A DNA stretch of 64,000 bases from Nitrosopumilus sp. (GTDB lineage: Archaea; Thermoproteota; Nitrososphaeria; Nitrososphaerales; Nitrosopumilaceae): assembly GCA_965203315.1 (NCBI GenBank), contig CBDBCE010000004.1, forward strand, positions 224,001-288,000. The letters are read 5' to 3'. Each line of letters opens with the position of its first letter. Position 1 is the stretch's first letter. This document shows, one piece after another, positions 2,842 to 20,116 of this stretch. The position numbers were made by a program, and so were the translations under genes. Below the pieces are notes generated by a model. It was not told the origin of the DNA. It did no database searches and was given only the letters and a program-made list of their open reading frames with translations.

Positions 2842-4149
2842 ATGGATGCGCGATTCTATCCGTCTAAATTATGTGGTAGTGTACATGTGCCAGGTTCCAA
2901 GTCATATACACATAGAGTTGTGATGGCTGCATCTCTATATGGTGGCAATATCAAGATCAAGAATCCATCCAACTCTGATGCAAACAAGGCAATGATAAAA
3001 CTCTGTCAACAGTTTGGCGCCAAGATAAGATGGGACAACTCTGATCTCTACGTAGATGGAGTTGCAGGGCGACCTACCGGTGGTGGCACAATAAATGTTG
3101 GCAACTCTGGCACTGCATTTAGAATATCTATCTCTCTAGCTATCCTTGCTGACGCAGACTCTATCATAACAGGTGATCCCTCACTTCAGAGTAGACCTGC
3201 AGGGCCACTCTTGAATGCACTTGTAATGCTGGGCGCAGATATCCGTGGAACAGATCGTAATGGTATCACATGTGCGCCAATCTACATCAAATCCGACGGC
3301 AATCTAGATGGTGGTGAGACACATATCTCTTGTGCCGAGAGCTCACAGTATCTGACATCGTTACTACTTGTCGCAAACTTTGCAAACAGAGATGTCACAA
3401 TTCATGTTACTGATAGACTGGTATCAAAACCATACATTCGTATGACTCTGGAGGTGTTACGTAACTTTGGAATCAAGTTCAATGTACTAGATGACATGCT
3501 GTATACAATACCTGCTAGGCAGTCGTATACTTGTCCATCTACATATGTTGTACCTGGCGACTATTCTCAATCTGCATTCTTTTTAGCAGCTGCATGTCTA
3601 GTAGAGTCTGATCTTCGTATCAAAGGACTAGATGCTCAAGATCAACAGGGGGATAAACGTATAGTTGATATCCTAAGAGAGATGGGAGCTGTAATAGATC
3701 AAGACGGTTCTGATCTGGTGATACGAGGTCCATTTGATCTAGATGGAGTACAAATAGACCTGGTGGACACACCAGATCTCTTTCCCGTATTGGCGGTTCT
3801 TGGTGTATATGCTCGTGGTACCACTAGGCTATACAACATGCCACAGATCCGTAGCAAAGAGACTGATCGAATCTCGGTAATGATGCGTGAGTTGAGCAAC
3901 TGTGGTGTAATAGTAGAATCTAAATCTGACGAGATGACCATTCACCATACTGACATGAATGTGAGAGATCACGTGTTTGATGCCAAGGGCGCAAAGGGCG
4001 TAACTGATCACCGAATAGCAATGGCACTATCTCTGATAGGTATACGAGATGGTCCAGTTCTAATATCTGATGCAGACAAGATTGCGATATCATACCCTGA
4101 CTATATTCGTGATATGCGACAGATTGGTGCTCGCATAGATACTATTTGA
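2842..4149 (+). CDS. aroA: 3-phosphoshikimate 1-carboxyvinyltransferase (EPSP synthase)
   Basis: PGSKSYTHR, GNSGTAFR, SSQYLTSLL, KETDRI and DHRIAMA motifs. Confidence 0.95.
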   Translation: MDARFYPSKLCGSVHVPGSKSYTHRVVMAASLYGGNIKIKNPSNSDANKAMIKLCQQFGAKIRWDNSDLYVDGVAGRPTGGGTINVGNSGTAFRISISLAILADADSIITGDPSLQSRPAGPLLNALVMLGADIRGTDRNGITCAPIYIKSDGNLDGGETHISCAESSQYLTSLLLVANFANRDVTIHVTDRLVSKPYIRMTLEVLRNFGIKFNVLDDMLYTIPARQSYTCPSTYVVPGDYSQSAFFLAAACLVESDLRIKGLDAQDQQGDKRIVDILREMGAVIDQDGSDLVIRGPFDLDGVQIDLVDTPDLFPVLAVLGVYARGTTRLYNMPQIRSKETDRISVMMRELSNCGVIVESKSDEMTIHHTDMNVRDHVFDAKGAKGVTDHRIAMALSLIGIRDGPVLISDADKIAISYPDYIRDMRQIGARIDTI

Positions 4150-4591
4150 TGTATCTCTCCAACTCGGACTTTAATTTAGCAAGCGAGTCTTGATAAAACA
4201 TCTTCATGTCTTTTACCGTCTTGTCAAACTTTGATCTAGTCGTGTCTTCACTCTTTAGGAATGATTGCCAATTGACTCTCGTGTGATCTGATTCGTCTAT
4301 AACGTTGATGCTAGCCATATATGCGCAGAGCGGTAATCCTCTAGTTGCAATATAGGTAAAACTGAACCTAGACCACTGTATCATGTATTCTTCGACATCG
4401 TCAGCATTCTCAAATACTATTACTCTACCTGCTCCTACACCAAATCTCTTTGTTGTTGTATATTTGACGTCTGTCACACCTACTGCCCAATCCTTCATCG
4501 ATCTGATATCTCTCAGTCTCTGCCAGACTATGTTTGACTCTGCATTGATAGTTATATCATGTGATATTCTATCTGTATGTGATCCCATCAT
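4142..4591 (-). CDS. SRPBCC (polyketide cyclase/dehydrase-like) family protein
   Basis: ITINA..IVW..L.D...W..GV, GVGAGR, C-terminal LAKLKSELE helix. Confidence 0.8.
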   Translation of the reverse strand: MMGSHTDRISHDITINAESNIVWQRLRDIRSMKDWAVGVTDVKYTTTKRFGVGAGRVIVFENADDVEEYMIQWSRFSFTYIATRGLPLCAYMASINVIDESDHTRVNWQSFLKSEDTTRSKFDKTVKDMKMFYQDSLAKLKSELERYIK

Positions 4592-4759
4592 TTATCGTAT
4601 ATCTGATCTACAATATGATTCTAAGTTGATTGATGCACTCTGATTGCATGTTTGACACATGATCTAAATCTACACATTGTACGACACGTTGTGCAATACA
4701 TTGTACAGCAAGATTGTTTAAACGGATCTTTTCGGTTTGTGTGGAATAGAACGGGTACA

Positions 4760-4900
4760 AGACTGTATGCGTATTTCTTACACCATACGCACATTTTAAG
4801 GTACAATAAAACACAGGTGTAATTTCCAGAGGCAAATTGATTTATTGCTGTCATGTTTGATGATTGAACGTGGGCACTCTTAATAATACACATACAGTCT
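4760..4900. mobile_element. MITE-B copy (141 bp)
   Basis: TIR AGACTGTATGCGTATT / AATACACATACAGTCT; flanks aca (left) and ttt (right). Confidence 0.9.
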
Positions 4901-5059
4901 TTTGTTTCAGATCTACAAAATGCTTTCAGGTCAGCACTGGTACCATGACTACGATTTCAGAATGTTTTTATGTCGTTATACAGATGAAATAACACGGCAA
5001 TAGATACTGCAACTCTAGAGATCAGTGAACTCGAAAAGTACATACTTTTACTCGTATAT

Positions 5060-5608
5060 GTGGATAACGAGCCCATATACGGTAGGCAAAAGCTCCAAGT
5101 CTTGATGTACATGCTAGGTGCTCCATATCCAGAGATCAGAGAGTGGTGTGATTTTACAATAAAGGATGATGGTCCATACAGTGCAGTTTTAGACGATACT
5201 TTGGAGCGTCTTGTAGACATGGATATACTAGTCGAAAAAAACAACACTATTCAATTAACCAAGCATAGCATAGAGTATGCCAGAATGATTGGAGAAGAGA
5301 AGGGCGGTTTCCCAGAAATTCCAGACCTACTTGACCGAAAGATGTCATGGGTATTTCACAACTATAAAGATATTCTAAATGACGTAACTATTCCAGAGAT
5401 GTTATCCTTCATGTATTGTGAGTATCCAGATATGACCAAAAACTCTACAACATACGAGAAACTCAAGCCAGATATTGAAGAACATATATTTTCAATCATT
5501 GCAAAAGAAAAGATTAGTGGTGGACGAGGAGGAGAGTTGTTGGGCGAAACTGCATACGATATGCAACATAAGTTGCTTGACAGAGGATTGCTGAAACTAG
5601 AGTTATGA
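5060..5608 (+). CDS. Putative antitoxin (N-terminal wHTH-like region, C-terminal UPF0175-like segment); frame is open from about 4994, where ACG may be a mutated ATG
   Basis: GRQKLQVLMYML..GPYS N-terminal motif; KISGGRGGELLG resembles UPF0175 KISLGKAAELLG; stop overlaps the start of a PIN gene. Confidence 0.6.
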   Translation: MDNEPIYGRQKLQVLMYMLGAPYPEIREWCDFTIKDDGPYSAVLDDTLERLVDMDILVEKNNTIQLTKHSIEYARMIGEEKGGFPEIPDLLDRKMSWVFHNYKDILNDVTIPEMLSFMYCEYPDMTKNSTTYEKLKPDIEEHIFSIIAKEKISGGRGGELLGETAYDMQHKLLDRGLLKLEL

Positions 5609-6402
5609 AGATATTAGACGCGTCTGTGTTGATTGGAATATTTGATCTTATCCATAGACCGGATGTCTTTGATGATATTTTAAAGTTGGGACATGAACTA
5701 GTAGACCCTATTCATAATTCGGTTCTTTCTTGACACTTAGCACGATCATCCCAAGCATAAACCAAAACACACCCTCATCATTATGCATATCTCTTGTTTA
5801 GTTGAATATTGATTAAAGTTATCGACGAAATGTTTGATATCCTAGAGGTAAATTTACAATATGTTGTGAATTTATAGATCTGCATACATATTAAAACTTG
5901 ACATAAATGGAATAGTCCAAATCACACACGTGGCACAAAAATATTCAAACTCCAATATTGGCCAAAATTGAATTATGAATACGGTCTAGTGGTACCAAAA
6001 TATGTTCAAAAAGAGTTAGAGGCTAAGCCATCAAATATAGATGTACAAGAATTAATCAAACAAGGCAAACTCACCAGTTCAGAAAAAAATTCATTGGTAG
6101 AGATTAATGTATTTAACCAAGATGCACAAAATTTAAAATTTGGTGAGATAGATGTAATCTTGACCTATCTGAAACTGGGCGGATACAAAAATAACGTCTA
6201 TTGTGTATTGGATGATGGTAATGCACGAAAAGTAGCCTCAAGATCAAAAATAAAACATAGAGGATTAATTGGATTGATCATAATGTTGGAAGATAAAGGA
6301 ATTAAAAGCTTTGACGAGGCTGATGAGATTCTAACCCTACTGTATAATTCAAAATTCCACATGCCTAAAGATTTTAAACATGTTCGCAGATATCCCAGAT
6401 AG
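5605..6402 (+). pseudogene. PIN-domain (DUF3368-like) toxin interrupted by MITE-E
   Basis: MKILDASVLIG..GHEL|VVPKYVQKEL..GEIDVI..LDDGNARKVA..GLIGLII; the halves rejoin in frame when 5703-5987 and one agt are removed. Confidence 0.85.
5703..5987. mobile_element. MITE-E (285 bp)
   Basis: TIR AGACCCTATTCATAATTC / GAATTATGAATACGGTCT; 3-bp TSD agt. Confidence 0.9.
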
Positions 6403-6634
6403 CACTTTTTGAACAAAACACTATTCTCTTGACTAGTTATTCTTAATATAAACAACTAGCTATACATGAACCAAATAACTTGTAGCAGTTACGACAGATG
6501 CCATGAACGAATGTCATTAATGTTCCACTCAATGCCTCGATTGCAGCTGACGATAACACAAGCACTCTAAATAATACGTCACAAGGATCAGAACCAGACA
6601 AAGCAGAACCCTAGTTGGATTAATTCAAGACTTT

Positions 6635-6775
6635 AGACTGTATGCGTATTTCTTACACCATACACACATTTTAAGGTACAATAAAACGTAGGTGTAATTT
6701 CCGGAGGCAAATTGATTCATTGCTGTCATGTTTGATGATTGAACGTGGACACTCTTAATAATACGCATACCGTCT
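6635..6775. mobile_element. MITE-B copy (141 bp), direct repeat of 4760-4900
   Basis: Near-identical to 4760-4900; flanks ttt (left) and aca (right). Confidence 0.9.
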
Positions 6776-7012
6776 ACAGAAAAAGCACTACAAGATTCTA
6801 CAAGGAAAATTGTGGAAAAAGCCTTAAGAAATTCCATCCCACGTAAATCGAAAAGATCCGTTTAAACAATACAAAAGATATCCAATCATGTTTGTATCTT
6901 GGATGTATAGCATATGCTGCATCGAGATTACCGATCTGTAGAGTTCGTATCTGTGTCGTTTTATCTCTATTTGAGGTATCATTTTTAATCCCCTTTATGA
7001 TCATTTATCGCA

Positions 7013-8275
7013 ATGGTATTTGGTTGGGGTAAGAAACATCAAGCTGAAGCTCCGACACAGAAAGAGATCTCTATACATGATATCAGAGATATGGTATCTG
7101 ATCTCAAGTCTCGCCGTGCCTCACAGACTATTGCCGATGCGCAACGTATTGGAGATATGACGAGACCGCTGCTTAAACAACTGATCGATATAGCTGCACA
7201 TCTAGATCGAGATAGTCTCAACGTAGACGACGTCGACAAGAATGTGGGAGTTCTTATCAAACGTGGTAAAAAGCAAGTCATCTATGTAATACGTAAAGAG
7301 GTGTCGGTTATGGATGATATCATCACCATTGATGACGCATTTGATGTAGCTCGAACTCTGGGATCAATTCTCAAAAAGTTGGGTGATGTCCTAGGTAGGC
7401 AGACTCGTGTAATTCATCTCTTTGCTAAAAAGTATGCAAATCAACTAAAACACAATCTCGAAGATCTCAAATTACATCATGCAGAACTAGAAAGTATCTT
7501 GAACAATTATACCGCGACTAGAGATGGCGCAGAACGTATCTTTGATCTACTCGACAAGATCAAGGATAAAGAGACTCTTATCACAAAGACTAGTGATAGA
7601 ATATCTGCGATTCATTTAGAGATAAAACAACTTGTTGCTAAAATTAATGATCTAGAGGCAGATATTCAAAGAGAGAGAGAGTCTGTCAAGTATGCTGAAT
7701 ATCTATCTCTATCTAAATCCCGTGACTCGCTTGACTCTCAAAAGTCAGATCTTCGCAATACGATAAACTCACAATTTACAAAAATATCCCGTCCTCTTGG
7801 AAGATATGAGTATGGCTCATCACTAGAAAAGTCGCAGCGTCCAATACTAGAACAATTAATTCATGATCCGTTTGTTGTTATGACACAAAATAATAGAAGC
7901 GATATCACTACAATTTTAGAGAATGTTAAAAAGGGGATCGAGTCTGGTTCTATATCTGTCAAAGATATCACAAAGTCTCTGTCGCATATGGGCGAGACTT
8001 TTTCACTACTCGATGAATTCATCTCACAAGTTGATGAACTTGAAAATAGATACGATAAAGTAGATCAAAGCATAAGATCATGTAATCTTGATACACTACG
8101 CAGACTAGAGTCTGATCTAGCACAGTCCAAGTCATCTATAACTTCTCTAAACCATACATTGACATCATATAATGAAGAGTTGGAGATCAATCGCCCTCTA
8201 CGTAAGGATCTCATATCTGATCTAGAATCTTCTCTTCGACATTTTTCAAATACACAGTATGTAGTGGAGACATGA
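7013..8275 (+). CDS. Coiled-coil hypothetical protein
   Basis: 420-aa ORF rich in heptad helices; no catalytic motif seen. Confidence 0.7.
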   Translation: MVFGWGKKHQAEAPTQKEISIHDIRDMVSDLKSRRASQTIADAQRIGDMTRPLLKQLIDIAAHLDRDSLNVDDVDKNVGVLIKRGKKQVIYVIRKEVSVMDDIITIDDAFDVARTLGSILKKLGDVLGRQTRVIHLFAKKYANQLKHNLEDLKLHHAELESILNNYTATRDGAERIFDLLDKIKDKETLITKTSDRISAIHLEIKQLVAKINDLEADIQRERESVKYAEYLSLSKSRDSLDSQKSDLRNTINSQFTKISRPLGRYEYGSSLEKSQRPILEQLIHDPFVVMTQNNRSDITTILENVKKGIESGSISVKDITKSLSHMGETFSLLDEFISQVDELENRYDKVDQSIRSCNLDTLRRLESDLAQSKSSITSLNHTLTSYNEELEINRPLRKDLISDLESSLRHFSNTQYVVET

Positions 8276-12739: not shown

Positions 12740-12806
12740 AGACTATATGCGTATTTCTTACATCATACTCACGTTTAAGGTATAATAAAACACAAGTGTA
12801 ATTTCT
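12740..12806. mobile_element. MITE-B left half, truncated by the IS66 end
   Basis: AGACTATATGCGTATTTCTTACATC..GTGTAATTTCT followed directly by GTAAGCG. Confidence 0.8.
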
Positions 12807-13144
12807 GTAAGCGGTTAGCCTGACAACGATCTTGTGGGGTTCTTTTAACTTAATGGGGGGTTAAGATTAAGTTGTAGGTATTTCGAGAAACGCACGGTAT
12901 GCAACTTAAAACAGCAATAATCTACAATGGGTGATCTAACCATTTTTCATGACTTGTAAAATTTTGAGAGAATGTTGCGTGAAAACTATCGACCCCCCCG
13001 TTAAGTTAACCATATGTGAAGAAGTCGATCAGAGTACATTCAGATGATACAAAGCATGCAGGTCGATCCAAGCGATCATCTGTAAAGCGATCTAAAAGAG
13101 GAAATGCAAACAAACAGATTACCCATCCAAAAAGTAAAAACAAG

Positions 13145-14152
13145 ATGATCTATATCGGAATAGATGCACATAAGAGATTTCTGCAAATTGCAGCAATGGA
13201 TCAGGATGGCAAGCGTCTACTCAATGAGCGTGTTGCCACAGATCATGACAGTCTAAAAAAATTCTTTGCGCAGTTTACACCACTCAATACACGTTGTGTG
13301 ATGGAGTCATCGTCAGTATGGTATTGGTTGTATAGATACTTGACAGATGAATTGGGATTTGGTGTAGTGTTATCGAATCCATATCAAACAAAGGCTATTG
13401 CAGAATCAAAGAAAAAGACAGACAAGGTGGATGCATGGACACTGGCAGATCTTTTAAGAGGAAATTATATCTCGCCTTGTTTTGTTCCTAGTGAATACAT
13501 TGTTAAATTGAAACAGTTGGTTCGACATAGAGATATAATTGTAAAAGGAAGAACGCGATACAAGAATCTTATACATGGGATATTACTGCAATATGGAATT
13601 AAAATACCTGGTTCAAGTTTTAGCAAGTCATTTAGAGAGGAATTGAAGAAACTCGAGGATTATAGAATAGATAACTATTTGGACATGATAAACCTCTCTG
13701 ACGAAAAGATTCGACAGTTGGATATTAAAATGCATAAAGAAGTAAAGAGATCACATGATGCGCAGTTGTTAAAGACAATTCCGGGAGTTGGAAACTTTGT
13801 TGCACTTGTTGTAATATCCAGCATTGGAGATGTCAAGAGATTCCCAAATGTACGCAAAATGTGTTCGTATGCAGGAATAGTGCCGTCTGTTCGCAATTCA
13901 GCTGGTAAACAAAATCACGGACGTATAACGAGGAAAGGTGATAAAATACTTAGATGGGCATTGACCGAAGCAGTTCATGTACACATAAAATGTGAACCCC
14001 ATAGCTACATTACAAAATTTTATACTAGAATTAAAAAGAGACGCGTGACAAGCAAGGCAACTGTTGCAACTGCCTCCAAGCTACTCCGATTGATGTACCA
14101 TATGCTTATAGATAGGGATGATTATGTCACACATTGTAGTCGAAATCATTAA
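13145..14152 (+). CDS. IS110-family DEDD recombinase/transposase
   Basis: IGIDAHK, MESS, KTDKVDA (DEDD), IPGVG, SYAGIVPSVRNSAG with catalytic Ser; probable start MIYIGID. Confidence 0.95.
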   Translation: MIYIGIDAHKRFLQIAAMDQDGKRLLNERVATDHDSLKKFFAQFTPLNTRCVMESSSVWYWLYRYLTDELGFGVVLSNPYQTKAIAESKKKTDKVDAWTLADLLRGNYISPCFVPSEYIVKLKQLVRHRDIIVKGRTRYKNLIHGILLQYGIKIPGSSFSKSFREELKKLEDYRIDNYLDMINLSDEKIRQLDIKMHKEVKRSHDAQLLKTIPGVGNFVALVVISSIGDVKRFPNVRKMCSYAGIVPSVRNSAGKQNHGRITRKGDKILRWALTEAVHVHIKCEPHSYITKFYTRIKKRRVTSKATVATASKLLRLMYHMLIDRDDYVTHCSRNH

Positions 14153-14345
14153 CGTACGGGTTCTGTTTGAGATATCACTCGGCAAGTTAAATGTACAGAT
14201 TTTGACGAATGGACGAAGAATGATACTGAGTTAACCACTCGAATGGATATATGTTCGCAGTCCTTTACATGGGAACACATCCCTAGCGTAAGCTATACAC
14301 AATAGTCGTGAATCAGAGTAAATCTTTATAAGCTATTCACATGGA
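14153..14345 (+). ncRNA. Putative bridge/seek RNA in the IS110 3' non-coding region
   Basis: Internal loop with GGGTTCT (14158-14164) and AAGTTAA (14184-14190) matching both halves of the target; second loop with ATGGATA (14243-14249) matching the right end. Confidence 0.7.
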
Positions 14346-14356
14346 TAAAAGAACCC

Positions 14357-14623
14357 AACGAAGCTTGTCGTAAATTCGGAGTTCATTTAGCTAATGCTGC
14401 AGATGATCTATACACGTTTGTGCTATACTATGGTATGGAATACACAAACAACAGAGCAGAGCGCGCTATACGACCAATGGTACTATTCCGCAAGGTAACT
14501 CAACGTATCGTATCTGAGGAGAGTAAAAGACGAGTTGGCAATATCTTTACATGTGTAACAACATGGGAGCAACAAGGTCTCAACGTCTATGATACACTCC
14601 TAAAAGTTGTGCATGAGACCTAA
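14357..14623 (+). pseudogene. IS66 transposase C-terminal fragment
   Basis: DLYTFV..EYTNNRAERAIRPMVLFRKVT motif. Confidence 0.85.
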
Positions 14624-14631
14624 CCTCATAC

Positions 14632-14664
14632 AAAAAATCCATCCAACGTAAATCGAAAAGATCC
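14632..14664. mobile_element. Solo right end of the IS6 parent / MITE-A
   Basis: AAAAAATCCATCCAACGTAAATCGAAAAGATCC, identical to 27392-27424. Confidence 0.85.
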
Positions 14665-14807
14665 GTATGAAACGCAGGAAAAAGCGATCTTTAGTACGTA
14701 ACATGTATAACACAAAGGGTGTAGAAGGGTCTAGAACACCTTCTACTAAGTTGTTAAGTACAACTTGTCGCCAATAGATACTAATAGATGTAGTTATATT
14801 AATTTTT

Positions 14808-14894
14808 GGGCATGTGCCAGAGCACGGTTAAATGGGACTTGTCGCCAACAAGTTGTTAAGTACTTCGTGGGTTCGAATCCCACCATGCCCACCA
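14808..14894 (+). tRNA. Non-canonical class II tRNA-like gene: GCC anticodon, long variable arm, A73, encoded CCA
   Basis: Acceptor GGGCATG/CATGCCC, T-arm GTGGG-TTCGAAT-CCCAC, anticodon stem ACTTG/CAAGT with loop TC-GCC-AA, 13-nt variable region, 3' ACCA. Confidence 0.85.
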
Positions 14895-14923
14895 AATATT
14901 CTGATTCACGTTCAGACGTCTCA

Positions 14924-15062
14924 AGACTGTATGCGTATTTCTTACATCATACTCACGTTTTAAGGTACAATAAAACACAAGCGTAATTTCTAGAGTCAAA
15001 TTGATTCATTGCTGTCATCTTTGATGTTGGTGTGGGCATTCTTAATAATATGCATACAGTCT
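14924..15062. mobile_element. MITE-B copy
   Basis: AGACTGTATGCGTATT..AATATGCATACAGTCT; flanks do not form a TSD. Confidence 0.9.
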
Positions 15063-15171
15063 ATTAGTAAAATACATAATCCCCTAATCTGACGATACAT
15101 GCAATGAGTATCTGCATAGAGTTAGAACAATATGTGAAAGAAACTAGTTGCCTACAGATGACGCGATTCGC

Positions 15172-15328
15172 TATCCATTATCCATTATCCATTATCCATT
15201 ATCCATTATCCATTATCCATTATCCATTATCCATTATCCATTATCCATTATCCATTATCCATTATCCATTATCCATTATCCATTATCCATTATCCATTAT
15301 CCATTATCCATTATCCATTATCCATTAT
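15172..15328 (+). repeat. Perfect heptanucleotide tandem repeat (TATCCAT)22
   Basis: 22 full units plus 3 bp, ending 32 bp upstream of the RM gene start. Confidence 0.95.
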
Positions 15329-15360
15329 ATGATGACACAAAGTTTGAGGGGTGCCTCTAG

Positions 15361-18300
15361 ATGGGCACCTCAAAGGCATCAATCTTTGATGATGTGCTAT
15401 GTATAATACGAGCATCTGCGACTAGTACCTCTGATCTCGGTAAACGGTTCGAGAGACTGACCAAAGACTTTTTCAAGATAGATTCAATGTATAGTAGACG
15501 ATTCAGACGCGTCTATCTGTGGTCAGAGTGGCCCAAACGAGACGGCACAGACACGGGAATCGATATTGTGGCAGAACAGTTTGATGGTACACTCTGTGCT
15601 GTACAGTGCAAGTGCTATGATGACTATGCCGGTCTAGACATGAAGTCGGTTGCCAAGTTTCTGGCCAAAGCAAACTCGCTTGGTATAGAGAACAAGATTC
15701 TAGTGTATACAGGCGATACATTTACTAGTCATGCACAAAAGTTATTGCTTGATTCCAAGTGTTCCATAATAGATCAAGAACACTTTCGTAGTTCTAGTAT
15801 CGATTGGAGTGATTATCCAAAACTTGTACGAGTCAAAGATCAAAAACAGCTCAGACCTCATCAGGTATCTGCACTAAAAGACGTGATACATGGATTTCAA
15901 AAATATGATCGTGGTAAACTGATCATGGCGTGTGGTACAGGCAAGACTCTAACAGCACTGCACATTGCAGAAGAACAGGTCGGTACAGGCGGTATCGTAC
16001 TGTATGTTGTACCTTCTATCTCTCTGATACTACAGAGTATGCGAGAGTGGTCCGACAACGGTACCATACAACATAGTTACATGGCTGTATGTTCAGATAA
16101 ATCAACAGGCGAGGATGGTTCCATAACAGAACTAGAGTCACCTGTATCTACAGATCATACTACCTTGCGACCATACATTGTATCACGACCAAAAGATGCA
16201 ATGACGGTAATATTCTCTACGTATCATTCTATAGACGTTATAAAACAAGCTGCAAAAAATATACAGTTTGATCTGATACTATGTGACGAAGCTCATCGTA
16301 CAACAGGAGTAGAAGACAAGTCGTTCTTTACAGCTGTACACAAGGACACAAACATACACGGCAAGAAACGACTCTACATGACTGCTACACCTCGTGTGTA
16401 CAGCGATATTATACAAGCCAAGATGGGCAAGGTAATCTATTCTATGGATGATGAAGAGAGATATGGACCAACATTCCATAGACTGAGTTTTACAGCTGCA
16501 GTACAACAAAAGGTGCTCTCTGACTTTAGAGTCAAGATTGCAATCGTACCAGCTGATAAGATAGACGCACAGTTTCAGCAATCGGTAACAGACGAGGACC
16601 ACTCCATACCGTTAGACGAACGTACGTTACTTGCAGCTGTATGGCACGGCATACAGTATCCAGATGATAATAAAACACCAAAACTGTTACAACGTGTTAT
16701 TGCATTTGCAAATCGTATAGACCGTTCTCAAATGTTTGCAGGCGAGATAACAGACGGAAACAACATTGATCGTAGTTTTGCAAGTATCGTATCACAGTAT
16801 GAAGAAAAAAAGAACACAGGACATAAAGTCCAAGTCAAACACATGGACGGCAAGACTAGGGCAATAGAACGCAGAGACAAACTACGTTGGTTAGACGAGA
16901 GTACTGATGATCCCAACACTTGTAGAATAGTCTCTAATGCCCGATGTCTATCTGAGGGTATAGACGTACCTGCTCTGGACGGTGTAATCTTTTTAAATCC
17001 GCGCAAGTCTCGAGTCGATGTAGTCCAGTCTGTAGGTCGAGTCATGCGTAGATCAGCTGGTAAGAAATATGGCTATGTGATATTGCCGGTTGCGATCCCA
17101 GCTGGTGTAGAATACCACAAGGCACTAGACAACAACAAGACCTTTGCTGTCGTATGGCAGGTACTGAACGCACTACGATCACATGACGAGTCGTTTGGTG
17201 CCGAGATCAACAGTCTGATACTGGACAAAAACACAGAGAATACGAGTCCCACTCCTAGAATCAGTGTATCTGTTTTAGATGATACATTTGTCGAGAGTGA
17301 ACCGATTACAAAGTTCTTTGATCATGTAAAGTCTCAACTGGTCAAAAAGGTAGGAGATGTAGACTATTATGACAAGTATGGTGAAAAGATTGGTTCTGCA
17401 GCTAGTACGATACAGTCTAGAATCGAAAATCTGCTAAAGACAAATGATACCATACAACACGAGGTATCTAAATTTCATAAATCACTACAAGATCTGATAA
17501 ACGATACCATATCTGAATATGATACTGTACAGGCCCTAGCACACCACATGGTACTTGCTCCTGTATTTGATGGGCTATTTACAGGACAGTTCACATCATA
17601 CAATCCGATATCTAGAGCATTTGAAGATATCATACGTACCATGGGACTACGCGAAGAGCTCGAGATCTTGGAGGAATTTTATGATGAGGTACAGCAAGAG
17701 ATCAAGAACATCAATACCGGTACAGCAAGACAAGAGTTCATCAAGAGAATATATGGAAATTTCTTTGAATCTGCTGATAAAAAAGGAACTGAACAACACG
17801 GTATCGTATACACACCTGTACAGATCGTCGATTTTATAATACATAGTGTACAGTATATTCTCAAGAAGGAATTCAACACCGAATTTGCAGACCGACAAGT
17901 CAAAGTTCTAGACCCATTCACAGGCACAGGAACGTTCCTTGCACAACTGATAAACTCGGGATATCTGGGTGAGAACATTTATGAAAAATACAAACACGAC
18001 CTGTACGCAAATGAACTGATCCTACTAGCGTATTATGTTGCAACCGTAAACATCGAGACGGTATATTCCAGTGTACGAAACGGACACAGACATGTTCCGT
18101 TTGACGGTATCAGTTACACAGATACTCTAAAGATAAATCCACTATATCGCACAGACGAGAGACATAGAATACAACTCAAACCATTCACAGGTCAGTTCAA
18201 ACAGGCACACGAACGCGTACATGCACAACGGTGGTCTCATTTACACGTGATAATGGGGAATCCACCTTATTCTGCCAAACAAAGCAACTACAATGATCAA

Positions 18301-20022
18301 AACCAAAACATACAGTATCCTGATCTCGACAAAAGAATTGGAGATACATATCTCAAAAGAGTCAAAGAGATCAACCCAAACATTGGACTAACGACATCAC
18401 TACGAGATTCTTATCTTCGTTCACTCCGTTGGGCATCAGATAGAATCGGCGAATCAGGCATAATTGGCTTTGTAACAAACGCAGGATTTATCAGATCTGA
18501 CGCTGGTGCAGGCGTCCGCGCCTCTCTCCACGAAGAATTCACAGACATTTACTGCTTTGACCTGCGTGGAAATCAACGAACGCAGGGAGAAATATCAAAG
18601 AAAGAAGGAGGAAAAATATTCGGTTCAGGCTCGCGCGCACCAGTCGCCATCACAATACTAGTCAAAAACCCAAACAAGAAAAAACACACCATACATTACA
18701 AAGATATCGGCGACTATCTATCCAGAGAAGAAAAACTAGACACAATATCAAAATACAAATCCATCCAACATATCAAAGACTGGGATACCATCACACCCGA
18801 CAAGCACCACGACTGGGTTGGTCAACGCTCCGACGAGTTTGAACAGTACACAGCAATGGGCAACAAAGAGACCAAGGCTGGTAAAGAGGTCACTGCAATG
18901 TTCAAGTTATATTCGAGTGGTGTAAAAACACATCGCGACGTATGGGTTTACAATTCATCCAAAGAAATTTTATCAAAAAATATGAAACGAACCATTGATT
19001 ACTGCAACAAACAAGATTTGTCAAATCCCATACTTGATCCCAAATTTGTAAAATGGAGTCCAGGACTCACAGATAGATTAAATAAAACTAAACCAAAGTT
19101 TGATAATTCACAAATTCGACTTTTAGCATACAGGCCATTTTTTAAACAATATGTATATTTCGATAAAACATTCATTGAAGTACTATCACTCACTCCAAAA
19201 TTCTTCCCAGACAAAACATCTAAAAATCTAGTAATTATTGTACCATATCGACACGGAGGATTACCCTCTACATTCATAACTAATGTAGTTCCAGATTTAC
19301 AGACCATTCAAAATGATCAATGCTTTCCTTTGTACACATACGAGAATGATAAGAAAACAATCAACATTACAGATTACATATTAACACAATACCAAGATCA
19401 CTACAACGACAAGGCAATAACCAAAGAGGACATCTTTTACTATACGTATGGTCTATTACACCATGAAAAATACAAAAAGAAGTTTGCAAGCAATCTGTCC
19501 AAAGAACTACCAAGAATTCCAATGGCTCCAAACTTTCAAGCATTTGTCACAGCTGGACGCAAACTAGCAGATCTACATCTAAACTACGAGACCTGCAAAA
19601 AGTACCCACTCAAACCTAAAGCCAAATTTGGCAAGCTAGTAAAGATGGCATTCCCCAAAGTAACAAAAAACGGTAAAAAGATTCCAGACAAGACACGACT
19701 ATTCATAAACGGCATCGAAGTCTTTGACCTACCTGAAATAAAATACACAGTAAACGGCAGAACCCCAATCGAATGGATCATAGACCGATACCGCAGAACC
19801 GTAGATAAAGACAGTGGCATAGTAAATGATCCAACTGAAACAATGACTGAAGAAAAGACAATAGCAATGATTCAACGACTCGTACACGTAAGTGTCGAAT
19901 CTGACAAGATCATCAAAGAACTATCCGAAGAAGAGTTTGAACCGAAAGCGTGGAAACCGAAACCCTCTGGTCTAGATAGATACACCAACTCTAAAAACTA
20001 TCAATCAAAATTAAGAGGTTGA
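15361..20022 (+). CDS. Type ISP single-polypeptide restriction-modification enzyme (LlaGI/LlaBIII-like)
   Basis: Mrr-like nuclease (GIDIVA..AVQCK), SF2 helicase (MACGTGKT, DEAH, TATP, QSVGRVMR), N6-adenine MTase (DPFTGTG, GNPPY), C-terminal target-recognition region. Confidence 0.93.
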   Translation: MGTSKASIFDDVLCIIRASATSTSDLGKRFERLTKDFFKIDSMYSRRFRRVYLWSEWPKRDGTDTGIDIVAEQFDGTLCAVQCKCYDDYAGLDMKSVAKFLAKANSLGIENKILVYTGDTFTSHAQKLLLDSKCSIIDQEHFRSSSIDWSDYPKLVRVKDQKQLRPHQVSALKDVIHGFQKYDRGKLIMACGTGKTLTALHIAEEQVGTGGIVLYVVPSISLILQSMREWSDNGTIQHSYMAVCSDKSTGEDGSITELESPVSTDHTTLRPYIVSRPKDAMTVIFSTYHSIDVIKQAAKNIQFDLILCDEAHRTTGVEDKSFFTAVHKDTNIHGKKRLYMTATPRVYSDIIQAKMGKVIYSMDDEERYGPTFHRLSFTAAVQQKVLSDFRVKIAIVPADKIDAQFQQSVTDEDHSIPLDERTLLAAVWHGIQYPDDNKTPKLLQRVIAFANRIDRSQMFAGEITDGNNIDRSFASIVSQYEEKKNTGHKVQVKHMDGKTRAIERRDKLRWLDESTDDPNTCRIVSNARCLSEGIDVPALDGVIFLNPRKSRVDVVQSVGRVMRRSAGKKYGYVILPVAIPAGVEYHKALDNNKTFAVVWQVLNALRSHDESFGAEINSLILDKNTENTSPTPRISVSVLDDTFVESEPITKFFDHVKSQLVKKVGDVDYYDKYGEKIGSAASTIQSRIENLLKTNDTIQHEVSKFHKSLQDLINDTISEYDTVQALAHHMVLAPVFDGLFTGQFTSYNPISRAFEDIIRTMGLREELEILEEFYDEVQQEIKNINTGTARQEFIKRIYGNFFESADKKGTEQHGIVYTPVQIVDFIIHSVQYILKKEFNTEFADRQVKVLDPFTGTGTFLAQLINSGYLGENIYEKYKHDLYANELILLAYYVATVNIETVYSSVRNGHRHVPFDGISYTDTLKINPLYRTDERHRIQLKPFTGQFKQAHERVHAQRWSHLHVIMGNPPYSAKQSNYNDQNQNIQYPDLDKRIGDTYLKRVKEINPNIGLTTSLRDSYLRSLRWASDRIGESGIIGFVTNAGFIRSDAGAGVRASLHEEFTDIYCFDLRGNQRTQGEISKKEGGKIFGSGSRAPVAITILVKNPNKKKHTIHYKDIGDYLSREEKLDTISKYKSIQHIKDWDTITPDKHHDWVGQRSDEFEQYTAMGNKETKAGKEVTAMFKLYSSGVKTHRDVWVYNSSKEILSKNMKRTIDYCNKQDLSNPILDPKFVKWSPGLTDRLNKTKPKFDNSQIRLLAYRPFFKQYVYFDKTFIEVLSLTPKFFPDKTSKNLVIIVPYRHGGLPSTFITNVVPDLQTIQNDQCFPLYTYENDKKTINITDYILTQYQDHYNDKAITKEDIFYYTYGLLHHEKYKKKFASNLSKELPRIPMAPNFQAFVTAGRKLADLHLNYETCKKYPLKPKAKFGKLVKMAFPKVTKNGKKIPDKTRLFINGIEVFDLPEIKYTVNGRTPIEWIIDRYRRTVDKDSGIVNDPTETMTEEKTIAMIQRLVHVSVESDKIIKELSEEEFEPKAWKPKPSGLDRYTNSKNYQSKLRG

Positions 20023-20078
20023 ACTATCGATGTGGTGTTTGAATAACTTGTTATCTCACACTGCATTAGACCTATAAG

Positions 20079-20116
20079 TGAAATATTCGCCCCGCTATGA
20101 CCGTAGTCCGGACACC
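20079..20116 (+). repeat. Solo IS3-like terminal motif, also at about 22771-22813 and 63543-63583
   Basis: TGAAATATTCGCC..CAGTCAGGACAC consensus in three places. Confidence 0.55.

Follow-up and report, generated by a model that had tools for sequence, protein, structure and literature searches.

Positions 4716-6867 of a 64,000-nucleotide stretch of a Nitrosopumilus sp. genome (GenBank assembly GCA_965203315.1, contig CBDBCE010000004.1, positions 224,001 to 288,000 of the forward strand; this whole stretch is referred to as the window) hold a small gene pair enclosed by two direct copies of a 141-bp miniature inverted-repeat transposable element (MITE), here called MITE-B. The enclosed block, or cargo, and its two bounding copies (B1 and B2) lie inside a second element, MITE-A, and one of the cargo genes is itself split by a third, MITE-C. 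An initial annotation, made from the letters of the window, had read this arrangement as the product of a circle of about 1.9 kb, carrying one MITE-B and a toxin-antitoxin pair, that fused with the chromosome. Following up that proposal, we consider it very probable that one period of a tandem array on another contig (C1:622588-627057) was moved into the MITE-A of the window by an event that depended on MITE-B. Coordinates are window positions unless prefixed, with C5 denoting the window's own contig and C1 another contig of the same genome.

The locus reads GTTTAAAC / MITE-A left / ACA / MITE-B1 / TTT / cargo / TTT / MITE-B2 / ACA / MITE-A right / GTTTAAAC, and every part of the order given by the initial annotation was found in its place. 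The features are as follows:

4716-4723: left copy of GTTTAAAC, the 8-bp target site duplication (TSD) of MITE-A
4724-4759, + strand: left part of MITE-A, with a terminal repeat opening GGATCTTTTCGG; the left ACA TSD copy is 4757-4759
4760-4900, + strand: MITE-B1, 141 bp, with termini AGACTGTATGCG...CATACAGTCT
4901-4903: TTT, the right-hand neighbour of B1 and one of the inner TSD halves; the array junctions have just one TTT
4904-6631: the cargo as a whole
4904-4948, + strand: distal part of a 3'-end remnant from a 409-amino acid (aa) gene, with TGA at 4946-4948
4994-5608, + strand: homologue of the 204-aa array gene, putative partner or antitoxin; the longest remaining open reading frame (ORF) is 5060-5608, 182 aa
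5605-5702, + strand: 5' part of the DUF3368/PIN-like gene; its terminal AGT (5700-5702) is the left TSD of MITE-C
5703-5987, + strand: MITE-C, 285 bp, with termini AGACCC...GGTCT, within the PIN-like gene
5988-6402, + strand: 3' part of the PIN-like gene; AGT at 5988-5990 is the right TSD of MITE-C, and the stop codon is 6400-6402
6481-6631, + strand: proximal part of the 409-aa gene 3'-end remnant, matching C1:627126-627238 at 74.8%
6632-6634: TTT, the inner TSD half to the left of B2
6635-6775, + strand: MITE-B2, 141 bp, in direct orientation with B1
6776-6859, + strand: right ACA TSD half (6776-6778), then the right part of MITE-A (6779-6859), ending ...CGAAAAGATCC
6860-6867: right copy of GTTTAAAC
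4142-4591, - strand: left flanking gene, SRPBCC / Polyketide_cyc2, 149 aa (PF10604, 1.3e-12)
7013-8275, + strand: right flanking gene, coiled-coil protein, 420 aa

A repeat search of the window returned a direct repeat of 165 nt (4760-4924 with 6635-6799) and inverted arms of 39 nt (4713-4751 and 6832-6870). Taken together, the left and right parts of MITE-A measure 117 bp, the same length as the intact copies of this element. One unit, one MITE-B, and one TTT sum to 141 + 3 + 1728 = 1872 bp, the 285-bp MITE-C included, in agreement with the size of ~1.9 kb put forward for the circle.

The insert is absent from relatives. Across 18 genomes of the same genus, DNA matches were obtained to the flanking genes only, with none listed inside 4716-6867. 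In three relatives, the SRPBCC and 420-aa coiled-coil genes are divergent neighbours ~90 bp apart without the cargo (tblastn, 35-42%), while in the window the gap between them is 2421 bp, of which 2144 bp consist of the MITE-A nest and one TSD copy. Therefore, the cargo is not ancestral at this locus, and a possibility that the initial annotation had held open can be set aside. With 66-83% identity in genes, the 18 genomes are too diverged to provide an empty MITE-A allele.

MITE-B and the relationship between its two copies

MITE-B has the properties of a MITE, being 141 bp long, non-coding, bounded by inverted terminal arms of 17-20 nt, and present in many copies. BLAST returned 75 matches in the 2.47-Mb genome, and the statistics given here refer to the 72 near-full copies, with three partial matches excluded. 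The flanking triplets match at 3/3 positions in 37 of the 72 copies, at 2/3 in 15, at 1/3 in 10, and at 0/3 in 10, and the chance of a 3/3 match is 0.019 (genome 3-mers) or 0.059 (B-flank 3-mers). The TSD of MITE-B is 3 bp, on which the proposal of exchanged TSD halves had depended, and it follows no strict TAA/TTA rule (the commonest are ATT, TAT, and AAT). Both B1 and B2 belong to the ten copies with a 0/3 flank match.

The two copies are 94.3% identical over 141 nt (8/141 positions differ) and are mutual nearest copies, ranking 68th of the 2556 pairs, for which the median identity is 87.2%. They share six non-consensus states across alignment columns 23-126, and these states occur in 5, 6, 3, 32, 3, and 8 of the other MITE-B copies, respectively. 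All six are combined only in B1 and B2, the next best copy having 3/6, and the private differences number two in B1 and six in B2. Judged by these characters, B1 and B2 are sister copies. The shared rare states together with the private differences indicate that MITE-B was duplicated during the event or that the copies were homogenised later by conversion. Two MITE-B pairs elsewhere in the genome are 100% identical, which points to recent movement of the family. The copy at C1:1736888-1737028 (TSD ACT), which lies inside a paralogue of the 204-aa gene, is 100% identical to that at C1:1626087.

The closest autonomous element to MITE-B is a 1.53-kb insertion sequence (IS) with AGAC...GTCT termini, in which 11 of the first 13 terminal nucleotides are identical. 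This IS has 3-bp TSDs in the five copies shown, has no internal similarity to MITE-B, and encodes a 419-aa protein (L010 368-1627, minus) with DDE_Tnp_4 (PF13359, 7.9e-21) and HTH_Tnp_4 domains; genome-wide, there are 26 DDE_Tnp_4 matches, 25 of them over the cut-off. No autonomous IS with the 14-nt termini of MITE-B was found in this genome (≤2 mismatches, 160-6000 bp), and the terminus search returned MITE-sized pairs plus five longer pairs, all of which are IS or MITE nests. A region with CTA/CTA flanks at C1:535596-540294 was considered as a second compound element and rejected, as it is an IS nest with a truncated MITE-B and a different 241-bp element. A pattern search of the assembly for MITE-B ends 0-15 nt apart gave noise only.

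Two other arrangements of MITE-B occur on C5. At 12740-15062 of the window (C5:236740-239062), a copy truncated at position 67 is followed by a 1.34-kb IS, a 1.7-kb IS fragment, and then a full MITE-B. At C5:148561-149489, two inverted copies lie 648 bp apart with inner flanks ACT/ACT and outer flanks TGT and CAT, a pattern that is not explained by a simple inversion between both copies.

Counterpart sites, donor array, and cargo genes

In a flank-joining test, the left flank of one MITE-B was joined to the right flank of another for all 35 copies with unmatched TSDs, and only the B1/B2 pair gave uninterrupted counterparts. The left flank of B2 joined to the right flank of B1 matches at 53/53 positions at both C1:624010-624062 and C1:625455-625507, and at 45/45 positions at C1:627033-627077. 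The reciprocal join (left of B1, right of B2) matches 10 intact MITE-A copies. These matches uphold the reading of the outer ACA and the inner TTT as swapped TSD halves, and they carry its support beyond the 3-bp inner TSDs on which the initial annotation had cautioned that it rested. In this genome-wide survey of MITE-B flanks, B1/B2 is the sole supported case of a swap. Two further reciprocal 3-mer swaps (C1:1484744/C1:1912877 and C1:1628868/C5:148561) were rejected, as they have no bridging match and occur in about the number expected by chance.

One of the two counterparts is MITE-A, a 117-bp element for which 152 BLAST rows include 86 full-length copies. Among these, ACAGAAA is a single site in 54, the exact 7-mer is missing from that place in 32, and no copy has two; therefore, ACA is duplicated at this locus only. 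The 8-bp flanks of MITE-A match at 8/8 positions in 5 and at 7/8 in 2 of the 86 copies, GTTTAAAC here being one of the five perfect cases, and with a slack of ±2 nt the numbers are 5 (8/8) and 7 (7/8), compared with 0 and 0.8 in a random control. As many as 63/86 copies resemble the random control, i.e., most are without an 8-bp TSD, and this scarcity fits IS6-family cointegrate or intramolecular routes or frequent recombination between copies. The terminal repeat of MITE-A (GGATCTTTTCG...) is common to a 1.5-kb IS whose 381-aa protein carries DDE_Tnp_IS240 (PF13610, 2e-15) and a SWIM finger, which places this IS in the IS6 family. GG tips and 8-bp repeats are features of that family as outlined in PMC7986276, and MITE-A has GG tips, an 8-bp TSD, and an IS240-type parent. 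MITE-A is an IS6/IS26-family derivative and was a passive target at this locus.

The other counterpart is the array. The cargo halves gave 31 and 29 BLAST matches, which merge into 24 loci, and three head-to-tail cargo-like units lie at C1:622588-627057 on the minus strand, with an exact TTT triplet separating successive units (...caagacTTTgtttcag...). Besides the 204-aa and DUF3368/PIN-like genes, an array unit contains what is left of the 3' end of the neighbouring 409-aa gene; an intact gene pair of the array occupies L009 1832-2332 and 2329-2943 (both minus). The intact 409-aa gene (L009 6014-7243, minus) lies ahead of unit 1, and its C-terminus is encoded by the junction sequence; hence, a decayed remnant of its 3' end is present in each later unit. 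The cargo of the window starts and stops inside this remnant, has the length of exactly one array period, and is a circular permutation of contiguous array sequence. The window remnant shares 93-95% identity with the remnants at internal junctions vs 74.8% with the real 409-aa gene end; given these identities and the intact 409-aa gene, C1 is the ancestral context, and the window copy came from an internal array unit. Over the whole unit, the window copy is 87.2-90.6% identical to the three array units, which are 87.4-90.4% identical among themselves and form a mosaic. The circular permutation is what the circle model had predicted, but the donor is a three-unit array on C1 rather than an independent circular replicon. 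With a tandem array as donor, a circle is no longer required, since a compound transposon can create the ACA TSD. Directly downstream of the array lies an N6/N4 DNA methylase gene (PF01555, 4.3e-47; L009 357-1412, minus; C1:621356-622411), and given this adjoining gene, the array may be located in a defence-type neighbourhood.

The assembled joints were compared with contigs of four of the five public runs that contain the stretch, some of which may be the assembly's own data. Contigs of P1 (X1, X4) and P2 (X2) run from the left flank into B1 (4300-4785), and contigs of P1 and P3 (X1, X5) run from the end of the cargo through B2 and the right part of MITE-A into the flank (6605-7300 and 6483-7300), in each case with no differences. 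Every contig joint listed at the locus is explained by a paralogous locus: a 288-nt skip corresponds to paralogous PIN-like genes without MITE-C, a 2026-nt skip with 6 letters between to other MITE-A copies, joints 4900>5702 and 5994>4760 to neighbouring MITE-B and MITE-C copies at C5:329086-329530, and the 4904/6634 joint to the array junction, itself present in the assembly. No circle, solo-B allele, or alternative allele was seen in these contigs, which cannot show absence. IS elements are very abundant in the genome, in which merged repeat intervals of at least 499 bp number 209. Contigs C1 and C5 start with the same 17.8-kb sequence (C1:1-17756 = C5:1-17756), which represents a large repeat where a contig breaks or else a duplication made in assembly.

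The label of a toxin-antitoxin pair, given to the cargo by the initial annotation, holds in part. The 166-aa protein of the array is DUF3368/PIN-like: precomputed PF11848 (DUF3368) assignments are found on 23/26 of the proteins listed, the query's own entry included, and the protein matches the PADLOC candidate-defence family PDC-S70 (4.4e-12) and adjoins Atlas clusters named PIN/DUF3368 (score 0.95). Its Pfam PIN and PIN_4 matches have E values of 0.04-0.05, below the cut-off, and it has no match in PDB sequences. Its 204-aa partner has no Pfam or NCBIfam family and matches no antitoxin family above threshold; clusters bearing SocA_Panacea (0.89-0.90) and weak PADLOC matches (E 0.004-0.03) are leads only. 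PDB sequence searches with the cargo proteins, and Pfam and NCBIfam searches with the window's own cargo ORFs, gave nothing useful. As in type II toxin-antitoxin systems with a PIN (VapC-like) toxin, the two small genes overlap as ATGA (stop/start), the second is DUF3368/PIN-like, and the pair is found at 24 loci in this genome. Unlike in those systems, the 204-aa protein is without an antitoxin family above threshold and the window copy is defective in both genes, and toxicity is putative.

In the window, the 204-aa gene starts with ACG at 4994-4996, whereas ATG stands there in the array units and paralogous contigs have T at 4995, and the PIN-like gene is split by MITE-C. Given the loss of the start codon and this split, the window gene pair is probably dead, to judge by its sequence. 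MITE-C, which may be a later insertion, is present as seven near-full copies with 3-bp TSDs; at its insertion site, the array units have AGT only once, and the MITE-C termini match another DDE_Tnp_4 IS (end AGAGCCCATTCATAATTC). In array unit 1, the PIN-like gene is interrupted by a 133-bp MITE (C1:626078-626208) whose ends resemble another IS family (TAGTCGTGAACATAATAATTTTCCG), so that 2/4 units (the window copy and array unit 1) have MITE-disrupted PIN-like genes. Ten of the 24 gene-pair loci lie ≤500 bp from a MITE-A, compared with 2.2 for random placement and with 0/2000 placements reaching 10; this control is lenient, as gene pairs and MITE-A may both simply accumulate in dispensable regions.

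Routes by which the unit may have moved

The intermediate that we tentatively put forward, at slightly under an even chance, is a B-unit-B compound transposon built within the array. A MITE-B would have inserted at TTT within an array remnant, producing a TTT TSD, and unequal crossing-over between array units would then have duplicated the B-bearing unit to give B-TTT-unit-TTT-B. The outer B ends would have been used in trans by a DDE_Tnp_4 (IS5/Harbinger-type) transposase from an IS of this genome whose termini match. As a compound transposon, the ~1.6-1.9-kb block would thereby have entered a resident MITE-A at its single ACA, which would have been duplicated in the process. The array would subsequently have lost its B copies through excision repair or contraction. 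Decay of the cargo (loss of the start codon and insertion of MITE-C into the PIN-like gene) would have come afterwards or partly before.

We prefer this compound route for the following reasons: (i) the ordinary chemistry expected of an IS5/Harbinger-type enzyme suffices; (ii) duplication of MITE-B together with the unit directly predicts sister B copies; and (iii) a B-unit-B block offers the enzyme a stable substrate, in contrast to a transient, non-replicating circle. In the IS5/Harbinger group, cut-and-paste is the usual chemistry, and any two correctly oriented ends form a compound transposon. The hallmark of such a transposon is present at the locus, where B1 and B2 bracket the cargo as direct repeats with ACA/ACA outside, and the intact MITE-A has a single ACA.

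Several points weigh against the compound route. MITE-B is absent from all array units today, which makes the proposed B-unit-B donor hypothetical, and since the genome has a single B-unit-B block, movement of the unit is deduced from one insertion. Integration of a circle would leave the same final structure, and the sequence cannot separate the three routes considered here. The closest array unit is 90.6% identical overall, which is below the 94.3% between B1 and B2, so that the sister unit left in the array would have been lost or converted; parts of unit 1 reach 93-95%. Only the termini are common to MITE-B and the 1.53-kb IS, whose enzyme is thus a candidate for the acting transposase. 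Finally, B1 and B2 are separated by 1.7 kb, and conversion between them could make them look like sisters. The 8/141 differences between the two copies and the decay of the cargo indicate that the event is old and the locus a fossil rather than an active element.

Alternatively, a circle looped out of the array may have been the intermediate, a possibility that, with its two routes (both named by the initial annotation) counted together, we rate as only slightly less likely than the compound transposon. In the Campbell-type version, a looped-out circle with one unit and one B would have recombined homologously with a solo ACA-B-ACA in MITE-A. The flanks that this predicts are exactly those observed, and because the loop-out removes the B-bearing unit, a B-free array needs no further step. 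A resident B is also plausible, since solo copies inside MITE-A occur elsewhere (e.g., C5:277000-277137, TSD ATT, with MITE-A segments flanking). However, the resident B and the B of the circle would have to be near-identical sisters, or be made so by later gene conversion; only 141 bp of homology would be available, vs 1.4 kb between the circle and its own array; and a non-replicating circle would have to recombine before its loss. The public contigs, in which absence cannot be shown, gave neither a circle nor a solo allele, and overall we regard this version as rather unlikely. The other version, a cointegrate made by a transposase, would have copy-in transposition of MITE-B fuse the one-B circle to ACA and duplicate MITE-B in the process. 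It takes the fewest steps and accounts at once for the ACA TSD, the inner TTT flanks, and the sisterhood of the B copies, and cointegrates are formed at low frequency by IS903 of the IS5 family. We nevertheless consider it improbable, as the related transposase is a DDE_Tnp_4 enzyme of the IS5/Harbinger type, for which cut-and-paste is the rule, and would need to work in trans on a MITE carried by a short-lived circle, and as the 35 copies with unmatched TSDs yield no second B pair with matching inner flanks and an uninterrupted counterpart.

Little room is left for a history without relocation by MITE-B, in which two independent insertions met chance flank matches or a repeat caused an assembly artefact. 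Three-base matches are weak alone, the two other reciprocal 3-mer coincidences among the 35 copies are about what chance would give, and the genome is very repeat-rich. Independent insertions would leave X-B-X and Y-B-Y rather than swapped flanks, however, the 53/53, 45/45, and 10 MITE-A matches are beyond chance, and the public-run contigs cross both the left flank/B1 joint and the cargo/B2/right flank joints without differences; we hold such a history to be very improbable. A more far-reaching idea, which we consider doubtful, is that the 141-bp MITE-B behaves in this archaeon like an IS26 translocatable unit, forming a one-B circle of ~1.6-1.9 kb that is copied in by a DDE_Tnp_4 transposase acting in trans. 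If this were true, arrays of defence or toxin-antitoxin-like gene pairs would seed new loci via MITE-tagged circles, and the proximity of gene-pair loci to MITE-A (10/24 vs 2.2) could be a trace of that traffic.

Other MITE-B copies in the genome also stand in pairs or at boundaries. A direct pair at C1:1626087-1629008 brackets 2.6 kb (a 1.5-kb IS and ~1 kb with ORFs), and its two copies (C1:1626087/1628868) have outer flanks AGT/AGT and unlike inner flanks (TAT and ACA), with a chance of an outer match of 2-6% per pair. This pair is suggestive of a second possible compound transposon, from two independent insertions. The pair C1:1261403/C1:1264041 has outer flanks TAT/TAT, yet each copy has its own 2/3 TSD. 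A segmental duplication of ~5.2 kb (90.6-93.5% identity) connects window 14924-20091 (C5:238924-244091) with C1:722913-727988; its left boundary is the exact left end of MITE-B in both copies, with left flanks TCA vs GGT, while at the right, the flank ATT and the sequence beyond are shared and the boundary fades without a B terminus. This duplication may be a one-ended or recombination-mediated event involving MITE-B.

Parallels with known mobile elements

MITE-B resembles the Tourist-type MITEs of the PIF/Harbinger and IS5 group, which are short non-coding elements with terminal inverted repeats, 3-bp TSDs, and a DDE_Tnp_4 partner. It is likewise short and non-coding, with inverted repeats, a 3-bp TSD, and a DDE_Tnp_4 IS in the same genome. 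It differs in that Tourist elements are eukaryotic, that MITE-B shares only 13 terminal nucleotides with the IS (11 identical), and that its TSD is not strictly TAA/TTA.

Compound transposons bounded by MITEs have been described in bacteria, for example as class 1 integrons between two identical MITEs in Acinetobacter (PMC10969869). As in those integrons, as outlined in that source, two non-autonomous MITE copies flank passenger genes, the TSD around the block has the length typical of the element, and the transposase acts in trans. The present locus departs from that outline in its archaeal host, in its IS5/Harbinger-type MITE, in its passenger, which is an array period of the same genome, and in its target, which is another MITE; here, moreover, the inner flanks are halves of one TSD and both counterpart sites survive in the same genome. 

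The likeness to IS26 drawn by the initial annotation is structural. Compared with IS26 translocatable units (PMC4196232) and IS6-family pseudo-compound transposons (PMC7986276), as far as these sources set them out, the bounding copies are likewise direct, the outer flanks come from one insertion and the inner flanks from another, and, as for IS26 units, one element and its adjacent DNA would be the moving entity. However, MITE-B has a 3-bp instead of an 8-bp TSD, and the transposase related to it belongs to DDE_Tnp_4 rather than to DDE_Tnp_IS240; TSD length and transposase family thus refute membership of MITE-B in the IS6 family. In further departure from those systems, no circle was seen in the public-run contigs, and the IS6/IS26-type element of this locus is the target, MITE-A.

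Movement of genes by MITE pairs is documented for a few bacterial resistance integrons. A search of the literature on MITE composite transposons in archaea and on MITEs of Thaumarchaeota gave no archaeal case, as judged by titles and the starts of abstracts.

The locus documents clearly, in a natural genome, the movement of genes by tiny non-autonomous elements and is an unusually complete fossil of such an event in an archaeon. With donor, target, and product all preserved in a single genome, a base-by-base reconstruction of the event is possible. The locus also offers a ready substrate for the question of whether an IS5/Harbinger-type transposase works by cut-and-paste (on a B-unit-B block) or by copy-in (on a one-B circle). 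More generally, the locus shows how a tandem array and one MITE insertion can yield a mobile gene cassette, and it suggests a mode of spread for expanded families of PIN-type gene pairs within IS-rich archaeal genomes.

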